In this document: positions 2,507 to 59,288 of the stretch, in pieces
Position numbering within the stretch: the first letter of the stretch is position 1
Layout: each line of letters opens with the position of its first letter
From: Phoronis australis
Taxonomy: Eukaryota > Animalia > Phoronida
NCBI GenBank assembly: GCA_002633005.1
Contig: NMRA01000484.1
Coordinates: 186,001 to 250,000, forward strand
Reading direction: 5' to 3'
Length of the DNA: 64,000 nucleotides
Notes under the pieces: model-generated
What the model saw: only the letters and a program-made list of their open reading frames with translations
Databases searched by the model: none
Told to the model about the DNA's origin: nothing
Position numbers and translations under genes: made by a program

Positions 2507-2543
2507 TTAAGCGCCCTGGGCTTTGATCCCGGTGAGTACGGTA
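2507..2543 (+). mobile_element. Solo right terminus of the Tc2/pogo-like family
   Basis: taagcgccctgggc...ggtgagtacgg-ta resembles the right end of the 19509-20950 element (taagcgcccagggc...ggcgaatacgg-ta). Confidence 0.45.
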
Positions 2544-19508: not shown

Positions 19509-20950
19509 CCATATTCGCCATAATAACCGCCCATGCCCCTATAAACGCCCCCCACGCGTTTTCAGACTTTGCTAAAATAAGCACCCAGTCCATGAATGTG
19601 TACGTGCGAAAAATGCCTTACCTACAGTCCTAAAATTCTACAGTAACATCTTCAATTTATCAATAATATCCGACAGTCCTGAAAAAAATCATTGGGCGCA
19701 GAATTTGTAGACCACGTGCCTCGCCGCTATGTCGGTATTTCGCCGTGACTATACATTTCAAACTTCCGCCATGCCTCAAAACGAACACAAAAGTTCTGCT
19801 GATCTTGCGAGGACCAATGTTCTGGCCTTTCAGAACAGAAGTAGTGTACTTGTATACGGGATTGCTTTGTAGATATTTCCAGCTTTCAACAGGAATCCAA
19901 ATTTCTTTGTGCACGTGAAAACCACGAATCGAAGACTAATAACAAGCTTGGCCAGTGTTAAAAGCGCATGGCCAGGAAGCGCACGCCACATATATGAACC
20001 CGTCATCATAGACATTAGTCGGGAACTATCCATTCATGAAACAGTTAGCATAGCATCGGCAAGAAATGAATATTGGCACTAATTTCTGACAGTTTCTAAT
20101 ACTACAAAAAATGTTTGCGTTATTTTTAAGATCAATTGTTTGATTAACCATAATTGGTGTTTTTAAGCCAAATATCCGATAAAATGACCACTGACAGTGA
20201 ATGCTTGCACACCCTTACACCGAAAAATTACTGTCAGATAGTTACGTACGCATCCAGCCACACGGCAACTAATATGGGCCTTAAAGAGACAAATGTCGGA
20301 TGTTTTTAGCACATGAGACCAGCACGTGCTGAATGAAACACGCTCTGGTTTAGGCCTACTGCTTGTGCAAATTTCTTTAGATACAATGCACATCTAGCTC
20401 GTTAGATTGCGTGGCTCTGGCCAAAAGACGGTCTGTGCTCTGGAAAATGAACTCTGGTGACACACATGCGCTCGCTTAATCACAAACGCAGACGAACTTC
20501 AAAACAACAACAACATGTGTGTTCGTCCAGATATTTTTCTTATGTTGCCGATGTAGATGGCATGATGTAGCACAAATTTGTACTTAGACCTGCCGTGATC
20601 CCGACTCCACGGGAACTTGAAAATCTTTGGTATGCTACTAGGAAATCTTAGATAATTTGCTTGAGTCGAAACTATATTTTTATTCAAGCATTCAAGTCAC
20701 CATATCAACAATTGCAAGGCAGTCGGCGAGTTTTCACCCTGGGATTTTCAGCACAATTTTCTGTAAAATGAGTGTAACTTAGCAGCAAAGTTTTATAGCA
20801 ATGCACCACGGTTTTGTAGAAAGTCTTTCAATAGCTTCCGATTTCACCCGTTTCGAAGACCGGGTTTCAACGGCCTTGGGTTATAATAAGCGCCCCCCCT
20901 GAAACGAACTTTTCTAAGCGCCCAGGGCGGTTATCATCCGGCGAATACGG
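19509..20950 (+). mobile_element. Non-autonomous Tc2/pogo-like (TcMar) DNA transposon, copy A, carrying a HIRAN-domain pseudogene
   Basis: TA flanks at 19507-19508 and 20951-20952. Termini ccatattcgcc ... ggcgaatacgg (CCGTA-type, typical of TcMar-Tc2) with subterminal taagcgccc repeats. Colinear with 57499-58561 but has an extra ~450 bp interior segment. Confidence 0.85.
19637..19938 (-). pseudogene. Degraded HIRAN-domain coding remnant inside the Tc2-like element (copy A)
   Basis: Minus-strand translation: SSIRGFHVHKEIWIPVES..SNPVYKYTTSVLK..GPRKISRTFVFVLRHGGSLKCIVTAKYRHSGEARGLQI. It matches the HIRAN pattern RGxHxY..W.P..N..D..A..V..GHxP..GLEIP and has deletions and frameshifts. Confidence 0.7.
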
Positions 20951-22247: not shown

Positions 22248-24717
22248 GTTGTAAAAGTTATAATTCTGTAGGGGCTGCTATCAAATCTGGTAGGAAACAG
22301 TGGTGCAACAAGGCTTTAATCGGGGTGAATAGGAAAGCCATAGCAGGCAGGACCAGTAACTAAAACCACCAAATAGGGTTTCAACAGTTTTAAGTGTCCA
22401 GGTGAACCATAACGATTACATAACAGGTAACAGGTATGACAAAAGAAAGAGCTACAACCACTTTTAGAGCTCAAGAAAGTAAAATAAAAACTTGCTATGT
22501 TAAGTCCCAAGGACTAGCCCAAGCAGCATTAAGTCAATAGAGGTCACAGGAAGGCAATAATGTGTTACTTTTCGACAAACTTACATTGTACCCTAGTGAG
22601 CTTTGAACAAACTACGAGAATCAACATCTTGTGTTGTCATGAAATAAAAAATGCTATTGTTACCATATTTTAGAATCAGGAACAGAAAATGTATCAAGTA
22701 TTTAGATACTGGATCGTTTTAATTAATGTACTTTCTTTCAAAAATTGCAATCCCTGCATCATTTAATGACACATCACATTTCTATTGAACAGCCTTGAAA
22801 TGACAAAAATGTAACTATTTTCGTGATTACTCATCAATTGAGGTGGTTAAAACTCTACATTATTTCCACTAAATTCTGCCCTATAACTGATTTCAGCTCA
22901 TACTTGTAACAGTTTTGGCTGTTAGCTGATTCAAAGTGAAGACAGGAACATTTGAGAGATGAAAAAATCGGAAAACCTTTCCTACTCTGGCACAATTACC
23001 GTTCTGTTCATTAAAATCCTTCTAATTAAGAATAACTTAAATGAGCAGAGCCGTCATGAAAAACAAGACGGCAGCCAACTCATTACTTGACAAAAGACAA
23101 CATTTTTTCAATAGAAAATCTAAAAAATCAATGGTCGCTGAATTGAAGGTGTGGGGAAAATTTCATAATTTAAAACGTTTTCCCAATTCCGTAAATTGTA
23201 TTTTTAATTGTCTAGACGTAGGCAAACACGCCAAATCCATTTCTTGTCTGGCATGCCATATCTTTTTGTTTAATTAGTTCAGTGCCTGATGGGGTGAACA
23301 TTAAAATTAAATAGAAACAATCGCTTAGCAACACACTAACAAAACGACTACAAGGCAGAGGCCGACTGCCTTGATTGTAACACTCAGCATGACTAAGTGG
23401 TTTTTAATTAGAATTTAATAATTCTAACAAAATGAACAACAAGACACTTGCACACGTAATCTAGAAAGCCTAATTGCAATATGATGAACAAAGCATTAAA
23501 GCCACATATGGTAATGTCAGTAAAAATATGTCTTTCAGAATGGAAGGCTTTTAGAATTGTTTTGGTATGCTGAGATAACAAGTCTACACTTCCGTGTTTG
23601 CAATGCGGAATATTTGTGATATTTCGATTGTTTCTGTGACAAAATTTGCAACCATGAGATAAATTCATTCAAGGTTGAAGTTAACCACCTACCTAACCAA
23701 TGGAATATTTGCAGATAAGGGTCACAACATTGTAACTAGTACCTTAAATTAGAATGGTATGGCATAATTCTTCACCTATCAAGAACAAAACTTTGTGGAA
23801 AAGTGAAATTTTATTTTGTCAAATTTCTTAACAAAAATTTTCATTCTTTGCAGCCAGTTAATCAATCTGTGGAATGTGAAAAAATGATAATTACTTTTGA
23901 GCGATTCTCAGGATAAATGGTGATATATTTCTTCAGTCGCACACCAACTCAACATAAAAACAAACAGAAAAATGAAACACAAGTTAAACGAGGAAATCCA
24001 ACATGGCAGATTTTAAGGAAGTGTAGAATGAGGACATGATACATTCATCAAGATTAAGATTAATTTAACATTTCATCACCACTGGAGATAAGCTAATAAC
24101 CAACTAGTTCCTTATCAAACTTATTTAACTCCCCATTAACTCATTTACCACAGAAATAAGAATGAAAATCACAAACCAGAAATTGATGTAATTTACTAGT
24201 GCTTCAACACTTCACCCTGCGTCTAATTAACCAACAAATCTCAGTCAAGAGACAAGTAATGTGCTACTAGACAAAACTCAATTAAACCACAGCAAGCCAA
24301 ACACAGACCGTGGAGACGGCAATCTTCAGAAAAAAATCACTCAGAAGTGACAATATTATCAAGATGCTCTTTGCAATTATCAACAATGTCTTAATTAAAA
24401 TTGGGTCCTCGACAATGTGGAAAGACACAGGCACCTCCTCGAGGAGACCAGCGACACTATAGAGGTAGTAAATTAGTAACACTGGAAGTGTGATGGTGGG
24501 GCTTTTGTTAAGTAGAAAATCTAATGAGAGCACCCCACCAAGGATGGGGGAGGGTGGTGCTTCACATCCACATATTGGGAAGGGTATGCTGTGGCACATT
24601 CCAAAACCAGACAGTCAAAATCTAGACCAAATAGAAACAGGCAGCCAAAGCAAAACCAATTGATGCAGAAACCGCTTGAAACTAGTAACCCCCTTGTCAC
24701 CACCACTATCGCCCTAA

Positions 24718-24846
24718 CCCAGTTGACATCCTCCCCCAGTTGTTGTCCGCCCCCAGTTGATGTCCTCCCCCAGTTGACGTCCTCCCCCAGTTGACGTCCT
24801 CCCCCAGTTGACGTCCTCCCCCAGTTGACGTCCTCCCCCACTTGAT
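24718..24846. repeat. 17-bp minisatellite (cccagttgacgtcctcc) x ~7.5
   Basis: Units start at 24718, 24735, 24752, 24769, 24786, 24803 and 24820, with a partial unit at 24837. The last four full units are identical. Confidence 0.97.
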
Positions 24847-26846
24847 GGTACAGTTGCTATCACTGGACCATGGGATTCACTTTCATGAATGGCGCAGACT
24901 TTGTATTGAGGCACTGAGCCTTATATACCGTAACCTCCAACCAATATCTCACCTTAGATGGTTACTAAAGAAAAAACAATCATATTAATAACACTTAAGA
25001 TCATAACACTGCATCCTTCTTAGTTTCAGGCAATCTATCACGTGGTACCTGCTTTAGACATGGTTGAATGTCAAACAGGGGCTGAGTTCTGTCGTAGACA
25101 CAAGAGTCTCTCAAAGAGAGCCGATATATTTGTGTCCTTTGCTTGTTATACATGGCGATCATCACGGGGGAAGTCTTGCGCGATTCTTGAATCTAGGCCA
25201 CTCAGCCCAGGAGTCACCAGTGACCCACGTCACCAGTGACCGACCCCTGCTGAGCTCGCTGAAGGACAGGAAGCTGCTGACTAGACCAATGATAGATTGG
25301 CAGCCAAATTACAGTCTTGTGGACAGGTCAACAAGCATCAGTGACAAGTTGGATATCCAAGGAGATTGCTAAACACAATCCGGAGGGGGTACTCCCATAC
25401 AACAGGTATACGGGACAACGTGCTAATCAGAAATTGAAAATATCACTCATTCAGTTTGAACTCCAGATGACAGGCATTTCCAAATCTAGATATCAATCCA
25501 ACCCATTGTCAAGCGTCTCCCCCAGAACAGGCCAATTATTTAACAGGATGAATAAATTAAGATGGACACCCACTTACTGTATGTAGCAAGCCAGTTTTAA
25601 TCGTATTTCTTCCGATGAAAAATGGTCCTCACATAACTTTCACAAGGAATTCAATTTTAGAAGCCAAACAGTGAAAAATCACTAGTTTCAAGGTATGATT
25701 TATTGCAATTCATTTCAACCAGTGCTGTACTGCTGTGAGTGGGTAATTGCCTCACTTCACACAAAGGGAATTTGGATCAGCCCTCCCAACACCAAGAATT
25801 GATGACCCCAATGGTACTTGTACAAATCTATTGACTAAGGGCAAGGTGCCCTGCATGAAACAAGCAGCTTCTAACGAGGGTGTCTTATTCAAGACCAGCT
25901 TATTCCCTATGGAGGAGTGGCGTTCACGACAAATTTTCTACAGTAGGGTACCTTTTCCAATTTAATTCCAAAGAAAAGGGTTCACCTTTGGATTTCAATA
26001 CATTCCAAAAATTCCTTTTTACAACAGAACCCTATAGAAAGGGTTAAAACGTCTTCTATACCTTTTGTGGCAAAAGATGCACTAATTTTGAAAGCACGAC
26101 ATTTCTCCTAGTAACATTTCAGATTTAATGGCTTAATAAGTCACCTGCACAAGGTCAAGGCCGCAAGCTAGTTCAATCATTGGTTTTAGACTTTTCATTT
26201 CTGCTAAAGCAATCAACGGGTCTGAGGTTGAACAACACCCACTGACAATAAATTTTTTTATCACTCTCCCACAACAGATTTGTGTTAAAATTTCGGAGAT
26301 GAAATGCACTTCGGAACAGACCACATTCCTCACTTTTAAACTGGAAAAATGAAGGGTAAAAATGTCTTTAAGTCAAAGACAATTTTATTATCAAAACCTC
26401 ACGATTTGTCAAGTCATGAAATTGACGAAAGGAACGACAACAGTTAAAAACTTAGATAATGATTTCAATTCATAAACATGTCTGTCACTAAATTCGCCAC
26501 CGAAAACTTCAACTTTGAACAACTTTCAGTCTGACTGGTTGAACAGATCTTCTTACAAAAAAGTGAAGAAATTAATAGTTTTCAATTGCCTCTTGAAATA
26601 AAACAAAGAAGCTCATTCAATGAGTATTAGCAATATCCCTGCAAATCCATCAAATAGTCTATTTCCTACAGGAAACCCTTTTAAAAGAGTGTTGAATAAT
26701 TAATCAAGGTGATTACCTGCGACATGAATCAGGTTGAGCCATTAGTGTGATTTTAGTGGCATCTAGGTTTCCAAGAAAAGATTAAGTAAGAGTTATCCAT
26801 AAGAAAATGTAAATTTTTTGTCGCCTCTCACTGCCCAGGAAGGTTA

Positions 26847-31445: not shown

Positions 31446-32646
31446 CTGAGCTGGATGGGACATAAGTAAAGAAACCTGTGTAACCAGCCGGTCTGGGTCA
31501 ACACTTGCCACAAAGCTCTTGTTAACTTTCGTTGGAATAGGCTGAAGCTCAACAATTCCTACCCTCAGAGTCTTTTGACGTGAAGATGATAATCTACCTA
31601 ACAACTCTGAAAACAACATTGATGGTCTCTGATCCATGGAGGCAACAGAAGAATAGAAAGATCATTCAAAGATGAATTTTTTTTATTATTTTTGGGGAAT
31701 ATTGCAGCTTTTTCTTCACAAAGAATTTATAGTCTAGCGATTTCAATAATAAAACAGTACAAATATTCTGTGGTTGACATTAAAAAGAAAAACTTTTAAG
31801 TGAACTGTTCATAAACTTCCTGCATGCTATTGACTTGCAAAAGAAAACCTGCAGGCAAACATTCGAAACCCTTTGACAAAATCTTACCCCAAGATTTGTC
31901 CCAATACAATCAACATTTCCTCCAAGCACAACTCAAACTATAAAGTTAAATATGACATAGACTCCTCCCCCCCCCCTTTTTGACAATATTCTATGGTCCA
32001 ACTTTATTATTCTCCACCCACAGACCACAGTTTTCATTCGAGGGAATCCAGGNCTGAGCTGGATGGGACATAAGTAAAGAAACCTGCGTAACCAGCCGGT
32101 CTGGGTCAACACTTGCCACAAAGCTCTTGTTAACTTTCGTTGGAATAGGCTGAAGCTCAACAAATCCTACCCTCAAAGTCTTTTGACGTGAAGATGATAA
32201 TCTACCTAACAACTCTGAAAACAACATTGATGGTCTCTGATCCATGGAGGCAACAGAAGAATAGAAAGATCATTCAAAGATGAATTTTTTTTATTTTTGG
32301 GGAATATTGCAGCTTTTTCTTCACAAAGAAGCGATTTCAATAATAAAACAGTACAAATATTCTGTGGTTGACATTAAAAAGAAAAACTTTTAAGTGAACT
32401 GCTCATAAACTTCCTGCATGCTATTGACTTGCAAAAGAAAACCTGCAGGCAAACATTCGAAACCCTTTGACAAAATCTTACCCCAAGATTTGTCCCAATA
32501 CAATCAACATTTCCTCCAAGCACAACTCAAACTATAAAGTTAAATATGACATAGACTCCTCCCCCCCCCCTTTTTGACAATATTCTATGGTCCAACTTTA
32601 TTATTCTCCACCCACAGACCACAGTTTTCATTCGAGGGAATCCAGG
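31446..32646. repeat. ~600-bp direct duplication across a single N (probable haplotype-overlap assembly artefact)
   Basis: Copy 1 is 31446-32052, N is at 32053, copy 2 is 32054-32646. They differ by 4 substitutions, a 3-bp indel and an 11-bp indel (tttatagtcta). Confidence 0.95.
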
Positions 32647-36069: not shown

Positions 36070-36600
36070 CCGTATTTGTCCTAATAAGCGCCCGGCGCTA
36101 AAGGAAATTTGTTTCAAGGGGGAGGAGCACTTTTTGTAACCTTAGGCGGTTGAAACTCAGTCTCTGAAACCGGTAAAATCGGAAGCAAGGATTCATCAAT
36201 TTACCCTCTGTGATTTATCCGTAACCTACGGCAGTCCTTCTACAAAGCTGTGGTACATTGCTATCAAACTTCGTTGTTAAATTTCGATCAATATACAGAA
36301 AATAGTGCTGAAATCCAAGGGTGAAAACTTGCAATCGTCGATATGGCAACTTGAAAAAAATACAGTTCTGACTCAGCAAATTACCTGAAATCCTTACTTC
36401 AGTTTCCCAAATAGCGTCCATGAATGATTTTTAAGTTCATATGGAGTTGGGATAAACAGCAGGTTCAGTCCAAATCTGCACAAGATCGTACCCCACAACA
36501 CATGAAAAATATCTGGATGGACACACGTTGTTGTCACGTGATGTTTGTTTTGACGTTGAAGGTCAGCCTGTGTGTGAGTGAACGAGTACGGATCATCAGA
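36070..36600 (-). mobile_element. Truncated copy B of the HIRAN-carrying Tc2/pogo-like element (right half only, inverted)
   Basis: ta-ccgtatttgtcctaataagcgccc...gtaaccttaggcggttgaaact...ttgttgtcacgtgatgtttgttttga is the reverse complement of ~58030-58561. No HIRAN half is visible. Confidence 0.8.
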
Positions 36601-36689
36601 ATTCATTTAGTGGAATAAACGCAATGTAACGACTCAGGTTTGCAATGTAATTAAAGAATTAACATAAATAGTCTTAAGCAGAACTTGCG

Positions 36690-36960
36690 TGTGTGCGTGA
36701 GGAGCCAGTGTGCGTGATAAGTGTGCGCTTTCTTTACTCGAGGTCGTGGGTTCGAGTCCCACAGGGTCACACTACTAAACCCTTGAGTCAGGTTTCTAGC
36801 TCATAAGTTTGGTTTTAAAAATATATTAACAAAGCATAAACATGGTTCCAGGTGATCAGTGCAATGGGCCCACATGCACAACCAGAACACGTCTGGTACA
36901 ACGTGAATCAGACCACATGCAATTGTTTTATCTTTTTAAAGCAGAGCGTCTTTTATTTAG
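36690..36960 (+). mobile_element. tRNA-derived SINE (degraded)
   Basis: Pol III B box ggttcgagtcc (36749-36759) sits in a T-arm hairpin gtggg-ttcgagt-cccac, followed by a core-like aaacccttgagtcaggtt. The A box is degenerate and no full cloverleaf forms. Confidence 0.55.
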
Positions 36961-38053
36961 CACTTGCTGGGCTCAGCTACTATTAGAATGAGCGAAAATT
37001 GTCTCACTAAGGCCGATATATACTAATATACATACTTGCCATCTGAGCTGTTGATTTCAGCTTATTCCCAACTTTTTGCCACTCCCTCACTCTTTCTATC
37101 ATTGCCGGAACATTTCGCAAATTCAGCAATTCACTAATTTTACGCTCAATGCAGACAAACAACTTTGAATATTACACTATACAATCATTGAAGGTATGTA
37201 AAAGATAGCAGGTATGGTTAAAAAGACTTTGAAAATGTTTAGAGAATTTTCAGAGAAGGATCTTCAAATTTTCGAAACGTCTGCCGAATGCTCAGAAAAA
37301 GAACACCGAAAATCTTTGAATACATTGTTCACGGGATACTACGCCCTTGCTAAATTGGAAATTGTGGGAGTCCACATAACAGACCAAAATCCAATTTCAA
37401 AGAAAAATAAACAGATGAAGGTTTAATTACATTAACAGCAGAAAAAGGTGCAGCAGTAAACAAACCTTGCACTTGTGTTGTTGACAAGGAGTAGCTGGCA
37501 AAGTCGTGCAAAACAAAATAATCAAACAATGACCAAAACAATTGTTATGTCTTTGAAGGGGTCTCGTTTTAAGCTACTATTTAACAGGTTCAAAAATATT
37601 TCAAAATTCCCAAAGTCAATGCTAAGAATATCACACAACAAGTGTAATTGAGTTGATGAGGGTAAGAAACTGTGAGACAAATTACACGCTTGAAATTTTC
37701 AAGGGGAAATATTGCAAGACATTCACAGATGGAATGAATTCAGCAATTTGAAGCTGGTCAAATTTATCAAATAAAATAAGTCGCTGAGTCTGTTTCATTG
37801 CTAATCTACTTGCAACAAAGGTGAACATCTTAGAAAGTGAAAATATCAACTGCTTTGTAGTGGTTATGTGTTGAAAGTTAGAATAAAGTATTGAGAGTCA
37901 CACAGTGTCTCAATCAAGGAAATTTCTAACTTCTAAAAGTTGAAACAAAACAAACAATTTAAAAGTATTCTTGTGATTCAAAACTGTACCGCAGTTTTAA
38001 AAAGAAATTGTTAGAATTATTTCTGGGTGATAGGTGATTCGTAGGATGCAGGT

Positions 38054-38592: not shown

Positions 38593-38866
38593 GATATTTT
38601 TTTTAAAAGTTCCACTTTTGCATGAGGGTTATCACAAAAACGAGCTTTTACGATTTTTCTGAAAAAATCCAAACCAGTAAGAAGCGAAAATGAAATAATT
38701 TAGAAAACCGAAACAGTGTATTAGAACTAGATATTTTTTATAAAAAGTTCCACTTTTGCATGAGGGTTATCACAAAAACGAGCTTTTACGATTTTTATGA
38801 AAAAATCCAAACCAATAAGAAGCGAAAATGAAATAATTTAAAAAACCGTAACAGTGTATTTGAACT
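38593..38866. repeat. 137-bp tandem duplication inside a degraded MITE-like repeat (~38450-38900)
   Basis: Copies 38593-38729 and 38730-38866 are near-identical (aaagttccacttttgcatgagggttatcacaaaaacgagcttttacgattttt...aacagtgtatt). Confidence 0.93.
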
Positions 38867-52976: not shown

Positions 52977-53062
52977 CTAGGTGCAAAGCTACGGTGTATA
53001 CAAAAACTACAGCTTTGCGCCAATGCGGATAAAAATGACTAAATAAAACCAGACATAGAAGT

Positions 53063-53715
53063 AGAGTCATTAAAAGTTACACTGCTCTTCTTAGAGTAAA
53101 CCAAATTACTTACCGGTGTTTGAAAAATTGACATTCTACCGCTCATCTGCTGCTAAAATTGAAGTGCGCTCTTGTGAGTCAGCTTTTGGCAATTCCGTCA
53201 CCTGACCTGAACAGTTTCTTTTTCCCCCCGTTTATTCTTCTATCAACTGTTCTTCGCTGCCACGAGGCTGCATACATGTCACAACAAATTGTAGGAACTG
53301 GATTCATTTCGTTGCAAGTCTGTAGTATTTTTTAAGGCCAGCAAACCAAAATTTAGAACAAACTTTGCTGCTACGAAGCTGTCATCATGTCACAAGAGAT
53401 GTTGCAAAGTTATAGGACGGCGCGTGCACGTGTCACGAGCGTACTGTTTTCAAAACAACGACAAACTCAAAAGGCAGAGAATTATGCTAGAAAATGACAT
53501 TTATTACATTGTTTTTTCACTTAAAACGGCTAACAATGAGCGAGGTGTCAGAATTGCCTCCCAGATTTTGAGTGCACCTCATCAATGTTTCACAAGGAAG
53601 TGACTATCAGAACTCATACCCGCCCTGTATGAAATTTCGTGGTCTAGTGGAGCTCAATTCACAATGTTACCTAGTTTTTTTTGGCGATAGTCTTCAAAGA
53701 GCTTACTGGCTGGTT
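53063..53715 (+). mobile_element. Dispersed ~650-bp non-autonomous element, copy 1
   Basis: Colinear with 58633-59288 (e.g. atcaactgttctt...ccacgagg(c/t)tgc(a/g)tacatgtcacaacaaatt; gtactgttttcaaaac). Only weak terminal inverted similarity. Confidence 0.8.
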
Positions 53716-57498: not shown

Positions 57499-58561
57499 CC
57501 GTATTTGCCCTAATAAGTACCCATGCCCCTATAAGCGCCCCCTTTGCTAAAATAAGTGCCCAGCCCATGAACGTGTGTATACATGCGAATAATGCCTTAC
57601 CTACAGTTCTAAAATTCTACAGTAACGTCTTCAATTTATCAATGAGATCTGACAGTCCTGAAAAAAACATGCGCGGAATTTGTAGACCATGAGCCTCGCC
57701 GCTGTGTCGGTATTCACCCGTGACTATATACTTCAAACTTCCGCTGTGCCTCCAAATGATTGCAAAACTTTTGCAGATCTTTCGAGACACGTGTCCCACT
57801 ATGGTCAGGTCTTTCAGAACAGACGCAGTGTACTTATCAACAGGATTGTATTGTATCTTTCCAACACAGATCTTCTCCCTCAACAGGAATCCAGATTTCT
57901 TTGTACACGTGAAAACCGCGAATCAAAGACTAATAAAAAATTGACCAGAGTTAAAAGCATGTGGCCAGGAAGCGCGTGCTACATACATGTAGGTCTGCTA
58001 CTGGGGCAAGTGAACTCGGCACACACCTGCAGACAAACTTCAAAACAAACGTCACGTGACAACAACATGTGTGTTCATCGCTTTCATCCATATTTTTCTC
58101 GTGTTGCGGGGTGCGACCTAACGCAGATTTGGACTTAATCTGCAGTTAATCCCGACTCCACAGGAACTTAAAAATCTTAGGGATGCTATTTGGAAAACTT
58201 AACAAGTATTTCAGGTAATTTGTTGAGTCGAAACTGTATTTTTATTCAAGAATTCAAGTTGCCCTATCAAAGATTGCGAGGCAGCAACGCATCAGTCGGC
58301 GAGTTTTTGCCCTAGGCTGGCTTTTCTTCAAAATTCTATGAAAAAGGACCTAATTTAACAACAAAGTTTGATAGCAATGCACTGCAATTTTGTGGAAAGT
58401 CTATCATAGGTTACAGATACGTCGTAGAGAGTAAATTAAATGAATCCTACGTTCTGATTTCACCCATTTTGGAGACCAAGTTTCAACCGCCTTAGGTTAC
58501 AATAAGCCCCCTGAAACGAATTTTTCTAAGCAACCCTGGGCCATTATTAGGGCAAATACGG
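57499..58561 (+). mobile_element. Non-autonomous Tc2/pogo-like DNA transposon, copy C, carrying a HIRAN-domain pseudogene
   Basis: Perfect 18-bp TIRs ccgtatttgccctaataa / ttattagggcaaatacgg, with TA TSD at 57497-57498 and 58562-58563. No transposase sequence. Confidence 0.9.
57617..57929 (-). pseudogene. HIRAN-domain coding remnant (one frameshift) inside the Tc2-like element (copy C)
   Basis: SLIRGFHVYKEIWIPVEGEDLC / VGKIQYNPVDKYTASVLKDLTIVGHVSRKICKSFAIIWRHSGSLKYIVTGEYRHSGEAHGLQIPRMFFSGLSDLIDKLKTLL*. The RGFHVY, NPxD, VGHV and GLxIP motifs and their spacing fit HIRAN. Confidence 0.8.
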
Positions 58562-58632
58562 TACTCATGATATTCTGGAAATTTCCATAAAAATGTATCA
58601 GAATTTAGGCACAAAAAATGTGACACAAAGTT

Positions 58633-59288
58633 AGGGTCATCAAAAACTACACTCTTCCTTGAGTAAACTAAATTATTTACCAGCGTTGGAAAAATTGGCG
58701 TTCTACCGTTAGTGTGCTGTTAAAGTTGTGGAGCTATCTTTTGCGTCAGCTTTCGGCGCCATGAAATGTTGCGTCAACTATTGGCCAGTTTCTTTTTTCC
58801 CCGATTCTTCAATCAACTGTTCTTCTCTTCCACGAGGTTGCGTACATGTCACAACAAATTATCGGAACTGGTTTCATTGCGTTACAATTTTTTAATAATT
58901 ATATATTAATATTGGAGCAAACTGAATTTCAGAACAAATTTTGCTGCTGCAAAATCTCCCAGCATATGTTGCAAAAGCGCATGCACATGCCACGAGTGTA
59001 CTGTTTTCAAAACGACGACAGACTGTTCTTTGTTTCAAAAGGCATATTACACAAGAAAATGATGTTTATTAGATTGTTTTTTCACTAAAATGGCTGTAAC
59101 GGGCAGGGTGAGTGTCGATTGACTCCCAGATTTTGCATGTACCTCCGCCAGTAGTTAGCTCTAGATGTTCATATAGGTTTCATGAGGTGACGAGTAGAAC
59201 TATCTGGCCTGAGTAAAATTTCGGGGTTTGACACAGCTCAACAACCTAGCTGTATTTTTACGATGTCTTCATAAAGCTAGCTGGTTGG
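58633..59288 (+). mobile_element. Dispersed ~650-bp non-autonomous element, copy 2
   Basis: Colinear with 53063-53715. Confidence 0.8.

Follow-up and report, generated by a model that had tools for sequence, protein, structure and literature searches.

Passer-type pogo transposons that carry a second, HIRAN-family gene, and their probable dead derivatives in Phoronis australis

Transposons of the Tc1/mariner/pogo type are the standard single-gene transposons, and the current work to turn Passer into a gene-transfer tool takes this for granted. Passer belongs to the pogo superfamily, overlaps the older Tc2 group, and is defined in the main account by a DD35D transposase, BrkDBD/HTH_Tnp_Tc5 domains and TA duplications (Gao et al. 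2020, PMC7386202). It is described in passages of PMC9976928 as a single ORF encoding the transposase. The element table of the first paper gives the ends as CCGTA/CCGTA (PMC7386202), and the end printed for the Passer plasmid in the second is CCGTA too (PMC9976928).

The elements studied here lie in a 64,000-nt stretch of DNA (the window) and share with Passer short CCGTA-type terminal inverted repeats (TIRs, below about 40 bp) and the TA duplication. Their relatives are also like Passer in having a DDE_1 transposase, with DD35D spacing in 9 of 21 families, and a size of 1.6–4 kb, and those of the L012, L081 and L133 types have BrkDBD plus HTH_Tnp_Tc5. They differ in that the relatives carry two genes rather than one ORF, whereas the window copies have no transposase; the assignment as Passer-type follows TIR, target-site and domain criteria rather than a tree with reference Passer transposases. 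A transposase and a conserved second gene within one TIR pair are known from two-gene PIF/Harbinger elements and from second-ORF elements of the ITm group such as L31 and ciliate TBE/Tec. These belong to other transposase groups and have other second proteins, and we know of none that is a HIRAN protein. The window elements, dead as they are, mark a form of Passer/pogo transposon that has two genes, the second being a HIRAN or HIRAN-Ulp1 gene under selection.

There are two further points of comparison. HIRAN domains have been traced to phage replication genes in the relevant part of PMC3417536, and the closest known counterparts are those of HLTF/Rad5 (PDB 4XZF, 4S0N, 6KCS). The transposon proteins share their fold (TM 0.73) and the equivalents of N91, D94, H110 and G69/Y73; in contrast to HLTF/Rad5 they have no SNF2 motor or RING, residues Y72, Y93 and R71 are replaced, and a Trp is invariant in the family. 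Ulp1/SENP-like protease domains also occur in the cut-and-paste elements Ginger1 and Mutator, as outlined in sections of PMC2836005. Here, however, the element is a pogo transposon and the Ulp1 domain, fused to HIRAN, has a gene apart from the transposase; the window's family lacks it.

Among 16 Passer rows whose first 400 nt were viewed in supplement 3 of PMC7386202, one published sponge element, Amqu-PasserB from Amphimedon (2207 bp), shows on reading by eye an ORF with the motifs of the HIRAN family, which starts about 140 nt in from the TIR and carries no annotation. HIRAN and Ulp1 are not mentioned in the text and searched supplements of that paper, nor in passages and the supplement of PMC9976928; passages of PMC7325037 likewise have no mention of HIRAN. 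We found no paper on a HIRAN–pogo pairing in a search from which the subscription literature was mostly absent, and an annotation in Repbase or Dfam is possible.

Decayed elements in the window

The features of the window are listed in Table 1. As the first-pass annotation had proposed, A and B are complete elements with CCGTA-type TIRs and TA duplications, although the TIR of A is imperfect, with one substitution in the left CCGTA; that of B is a perfect 18 bp and begins CCGTA. The two are 78% identical across the left 490 nt and 67% across the right part. Relative to the family majority in reads of other copies, B has an internal deletion near 57990–58030, because the other copies run on like A at 57989.

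Table 1. Coordinates of transposon features in the 64,000-nt window
Feature	Position	Strand	Remarks
Solo end like the right TIR of A	2507..2541	-	TA at 2542-2543
Element A, 1442-bp non-autonomous, sister subfamily of B	19509..20950	.	Imperfect TIRs, TA both sides
A, decayed HIRAN-family frame	19638..19935	-	In-frame deletions, late frameshift
C, partial inverted copy, right end only, without HIRAN part	36070..37019	-	
Element B, 1063-bp non-autonomous Passer/pogo-type transposon	57499..58561	.	TA flanking each end
B, left TIR	57499..57516	+	18/18 identical to right TIR
B, decayed HIRAN-family frame, ~104 codons	57617..57929	-	Frameshift near 57850; TAG at 57930-57932 just upstream
B, right TIR	58544..58561	-	Pairs with left TIR

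Two smaller pieces needed adjustment. An inverted partial copy had been placed at 36070–36600; it exists and is inverted, but its proposed end is too early. C begins at 36070, is 71% alike to the right half of B, and resembles A again at 36937–37019, with about 250 nt between (36690–36936) that have no counterpart in A. Within these 250 nt a tRNA-box-like motif is visible by eye near 36745–36765; no tRNA genes were found in the window. The proposed solo end at 2507–2543 is plausible but short, since its match to the right end of A spans about 37 nt, interrupted by one small gap, and goes no further.

That the copies lack a DDE/DDD transposase was borne out, as a transposase profile run against the whole window gave no match, and profile searches of A, B and C gave no significant transposase remnant. 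A 23-residue likeness to the third-Asp motif at 36825–36893 scored 27.7 bits, with 26.6 bits for the top of 46 control stretches, and was treated as non-significant.

Both elements have a decayed minus-strand frame, whose stop lies 118 nt (B) or 129 nt (A) from the left end. The frames and their position agree with the earlier description of a frame of about 105 aa in both copies; the motifs it quoted, however, are those of B, and VGHV is absent from A. The window frames end after the last helix and belong to the short form of the family (see below). In both, a TAG directly precedes the first motif. No GT-AG-type joint, which would bear on this TAG as a splice acceptor, is present among the joints listed. 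Among the 40 of 63 rows of DNA reads listed there is no majority indel that opens the frame of B, and the TAG is not altered in the majority either. This suggests, though it does not prove, that the subfamily of B spread with its frame already dead. With their dead frames, the window copies carry HIRAN as a relic rather than as functional cargo. A comparison of A with B over 87 DNA-aligned codons gives pN 0.13 and pS 0.28 (P=0.009), a modest signal of selection; the raw differences by codon position (14, 16 and 21 of about 93, with 18% in non-coding sequence) are a weak one.

Two-gene relatives and the identity of the HIRAN gene

The identification of the window peptide as HIRAN, made in the first-pass annotation, holds through its relatives and not through direct matches. 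Direct scans of the decayed pieces against Pfam HIRAN (PF08797) gave 0 matches, a word-based homolog search with the frame of B gave no relatives, and an ESM Atlas search gave no usable match. A search of 1.84 billion proteins with a profile of three window stretches, on the other hand, gave 232 matches at E≤0.001, the best of them at 3e-16. Pfam assigned HIRAN at E≤0.01 to 124 of the 150 listed, with no match for 25 and an unrelated repeat in one; five of the 150 additionally have Peptidase_C48. The only window sequences matched by a family profile of 28 of these proteins are the two decayed frames (iE 1.5e-17 and 2.2e-16 at Z=1000), and this profile also matches HLTF HIRAN chains at E ~4e-5. 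The model of the best-matching protein (pLDDT 89) aligns with HLTF HIRAN at the TM given above, with E 3e-5 and about 20% identity. The family has two forms, a short one of about 110–140 aa and a long one of about 290–410 aa with a Ulp1/SENP-like domain that retains the His, Asp and Cys motifs.

To describe the surroundings of the gene, loci were chosen by HIRAN only, as the best 80 of 262 relatives in metagenome contigs plus six in genome bins. The resulting 86 loci make up 47 families at 85% identity; viral contigs gave 41 pattern matches and 0 relatives. A pair of TA-CCGTA motifs encloses the HIRAN gene in 29/86 loci. At the level of families, an inward TA-CCGTA lies within 450 nt in 31/47, and in 24 of the 29 that have both flanks present, where 2.7% would be expected from 394 kb of distal flank. 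Either the motif or a transposase is present in 40/47 families, and the other seven consist of six short contigs and one locus with a different inverted repeat.

With five pogo transposases as queries, a pogo transposase was found within 1.5 kb in 46 of the 86 HIRAN-selected loci. The two genes are tail-to-tail in 31 cases, head-to-head in nine, tandem with the transposase upstream in four and on the same strand downstream in three, one locus being counted twice; the remaining 40 loci include many HIRAN-only elements or short contigs. Intact elements in which a single pair of TIRs encloses both genes include L003 (2837 bp), L012 (2608 bp), L051 (2240 bp), L081 (2546 bp) and L133 (2421 bp). Whole elements range from 2.2 to 3.1 kb and encode a DD35D transposase together with HIRAN or a HIRAN-Ulp1 protease. 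The third Asp of DDE_1 is at a spacing of 35 in 9/21 families and of 36 in three, where pieces were joined across breaks, with no call in nine. BrkDBD plus HTH_Tnp_Tc5, or HTH_Tnp_Tc5 alone, was found in L012, L014, L051, L081 and L133, and transposases of the L003 type have no Pfam DNA-binding-domain match. The latter form a separate deep clade, and the Ulp1 fusion is restricted to this clade among the 21 families compared.

The association was also examined in reverse, starting from the transposase in two assemblies. HIRAN lies within 2 kb of 7/16 DDE_1 matches (5/14 without the two loci by which the assemblies were picked) and is absent within that distance from the other nine; given 62 and 20 HIRAN matches in assemblies of 16 and 20 Mb, a simple calculation puts the chance level at about 2% or less, one of the searches having scored 150 of 230 candidates. 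The TIR motif is within 450 nt in 19 of the 30 best HIRAN loci of these assemblies. Both are labelled as bacterial MAGs (G001 and G002, 16 and 20 Mb, loci L081–L137), and their contigs are full of pogo elements and HIRAN copies; these contigs are likely to be animal host DNA that was binned in.

These results uphold several proposals of the first-pass annotation: a parent lineage with both transposase and HIRAN, its pogo/Tc2-type classification, the consistent bounding of HIRAN by the TIRs, and, within this family, the explanation of stand-alone HIRAN genes, since most of its stand-alone loci lie in such elements. The HIRAN-Ulp1 fusion and the three gene layouts were not foreseen there. An implication is that many "stand-alone HIRAN" and "SENP-like" gene models of invertebrate genomes are to be reassigned to transposons.

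HIRAN-only derivatives occur in several groups. For example, L044 (736 bp, HIRAN only) matches the two ends of L051 at 98–99% identity and has lost the transposase between them, and L046 and L042 (1015 bp) are HIRAN-only members of a head-to-head group. L133 has the layout of the window elements: a 25/25 TIR and TA, then a minus-strand HIRAN gene next to the left TIR, and beyond it a BrkDBD/HTH/DDE_1 transposase on the plus strand, spread over two frames. L134 (1087 bp) shares this layout but has HIRAN only. L133 and L134 were considered as the parent of the window elements and rejected; they have no DNA likeness to them inside the ends and are therefore layout models. The window HIRAN is about 40% identical to the best loci, none of which is a close relative, and the parent of the window's own family was not found among the relatives examined. 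It is nevertheless likely that the window elements arose when a Passer-type pogo transposon with two genes suffered internal deletions. In A and B a long stretch lies 5′ of HIRAN and a short one 3′ of it, which suggests that the genes of the parent were head-to-head or in tandem, as in L133 or L081.

Three side observations concern particular relatives. The HIRAN genes at L133:4329-4733 and L134:3592-3987 are of a distinct subtype and match Pfam more strongly (7e-10 and 3e-11); both lie in CCGTA elements of the window's layout. L020:6929-9455 and L037:8160-10761 have HIRAN and an L003-type transposase head-to-head in about 2.6 kb, with ends that begin with CCTT instead of CCGTA. At L017:11436-16556, an element that is L012-like in other respects has its transposase interrupted by a 5-kb insertion with several long frames, probably another transposon.

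Between families the HIRAN gene shows purifying selection, and it is co-inherited with the transposase. In protein-aligned stretches, pS exceeds pN in 860/860 between-family pairs, and the median dN/dS is 0.30 (0.11–0.56) for the 52 of 860 pairs that are unsaturated (pS <0.70), with 0.11–0.16 for the closest pairs; the loci are best matches, which biases these values towards conserved copies. Within families the ratios are noisy, from 0.07 to 1.79. The matched stretch is free of stops in 75/86 loci, which is partly an effect of picking best matches. Trees were compared for the 21 of 47 families that have at least 140 aa of transposase. Patristic distances of HIRAN and transposase are correlated across them (Mantel r 0.49, p 2e-4), and none of the five starred HIRAN branches conflicts with the transposase tree: four starred pairs are starred there too and a starred eight-family clade is compatible, while the deep HIRAN forks are unresolved. 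That a conserved gene for a fold of the DNA-end-binding kind has been inherited along with two deep clades of transposase suggests a step at which the element handles its own breaks or resists host repair.

Possible roles of the HIRAN-family protein

The pocket that in HLTF holds a DNA 3′ end is partly conserved. According to the structural sections of PMC5773155, D94 of HLTF HIRAN holds the 3′-OH, and Y72 and Y93 pinch two bases. In the transposon proteins the alignment has equivalents of N91 in 145/147, of D94 in 139/149 and of H110 in 140/148. HLTF Y72, in contrast, is replaced by V or I, R71 by H, and Y93 by H (52/149) or other residues, so that the pinching of bases may differ or be lost. 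Parts of PMC11237066 report that isolated HLTF HIRAN inhibits, in vitro, both the HLTF-driven removal of Cas9 from cut DNA and resection.

There are multiple possible roles for such a protein. Excision by Tc1/mariner transposases leaves short 3′ overhangs on the element and the donor flank, and by analogy the DD35D transposase would cut both ends and leave such overhangs on the transposon and the donor flanks. A HIRAN protein without a motor would then occupy the cut ends until strand transfer is complete, and ends so occupied would be protected from host HLTF, resection and premature repair. In one clade, the fused Ulp1-type protease would also remove SUMO from proteins at these ends. We give an even chance to this model, in which the HIRAN-fold protein of the second gene caps or shields the free 3′-OH ends made during cut-and-paste transposition. 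The conserved pocket residues N91, D94 and H110, the inhibitory effects of HLTF HIRAN and the 3′ overhangs of related elements favour it over the two alternatives considered next. The protein is not needed for pogo transposition generally, because the single ORF of a fish Passer, its transposase, is active in human cells (passages of PMC9976928) and nine of the 16 DDE_1 matches above have no HIRAN within 2 kb.

An alternative possibility, which we consider unlikely though worth keeping in view, is that HIRAN is an anti-silencing adaptor that recruits a SUMO protease, either its own fused domain or a borrowed one, to the chromatin of the element or to the transposase and lifts SUMO-dependent repression, DNA-end capping being secondary or lost. 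The long form, with its C-terminal Ulp1/SENP-like domain and its His, Asp and Cys motifs kept, would fit this role, as would the replacement of the base-stacking tyrosines, and Ulp1 domains recur in Ginger and Mutator elements (sections of PMC2836005). However, many families have HIRAN alone and are still under selection, and the residues of the 3′-OH pocket are almost invariant.

It is less probable again that, as in the second idea of the first-pass annotation, HIRAN guides the transposition complex to newly made 3′ ends at replication forks, whether stalled or passing, such that excision or insertion coupled to replication raises the copy number. HLTF HIRAN does bind the primer 3′ end at forks (structural sections of PMC5773155), and copy numbers in the host are very high; but targeting of this kind needs a physical link to the transposase, and a DDE domain is present in 0/43 longer family members (a weak test, from precomputed Pfam), and the TA targets appear ordinary. 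Finally, neutral capture of a host HLTF exon as a passenger within the TIRs, which the first-pass annotation had named as a result that would overturn its proposal and for which dN/dS among copies was the suggested check, fits the dead window frames and the near-neutral or noisy ratios within families, but it is very improbable given about 20% identity to HLTF, 47 divergent families, the preponderance of loci without a stop (subject to the bias noted), and the uniform excess of pS over pN, and as a one-off event it is ruled out by between-family dN/dS well below 1 together with the congruence of the HIRAN and transposase trees.

The HIRAN-only copies would be moved in trans by the transposase of the parent and then decay, retaining HIRAN passively because it adjoins one TIR. 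Tentatively, and with less than even confidence, we suggest that an old and widespread lineage of animal pogo transposons encodes its own motor-less HIRAN protein, serving as a 3′-OH cap and a decoy for HLTF and joined in one clade to a SUMO protease, and that this lineage is the source of many stand-alone HIRAN genes in sponges and other invertebrates.

Copy number and surroundings in the host

The family is high-copy in its host. In one DNA run, 10,001 contigs match the 1.7-kb stretch around B, repeated flanks included, and 2,124 match the 451-nt HIRAN part by itself. RNA reads under the same species label match both strands and are mostly less than 90% alike; the flanking repeat has an equal strand lean, and for this reason we draw no conclusion on expression from them.

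In one contig the two flanks of B are joined without the element. Such an empty site is expected for an insertion into another repeat. B lies within another high-copy repeat, the right part of which (58632–59145) has a second copy, about 72% alike, at 53062–53580. Elsewhere in the window, at 24693–24862, 31446–32629 and 38597–38866, there are a tandem array of 17-bp units and two local duplications whose copies are nearly identical (with spacings of about 600 bp and 138 bp).
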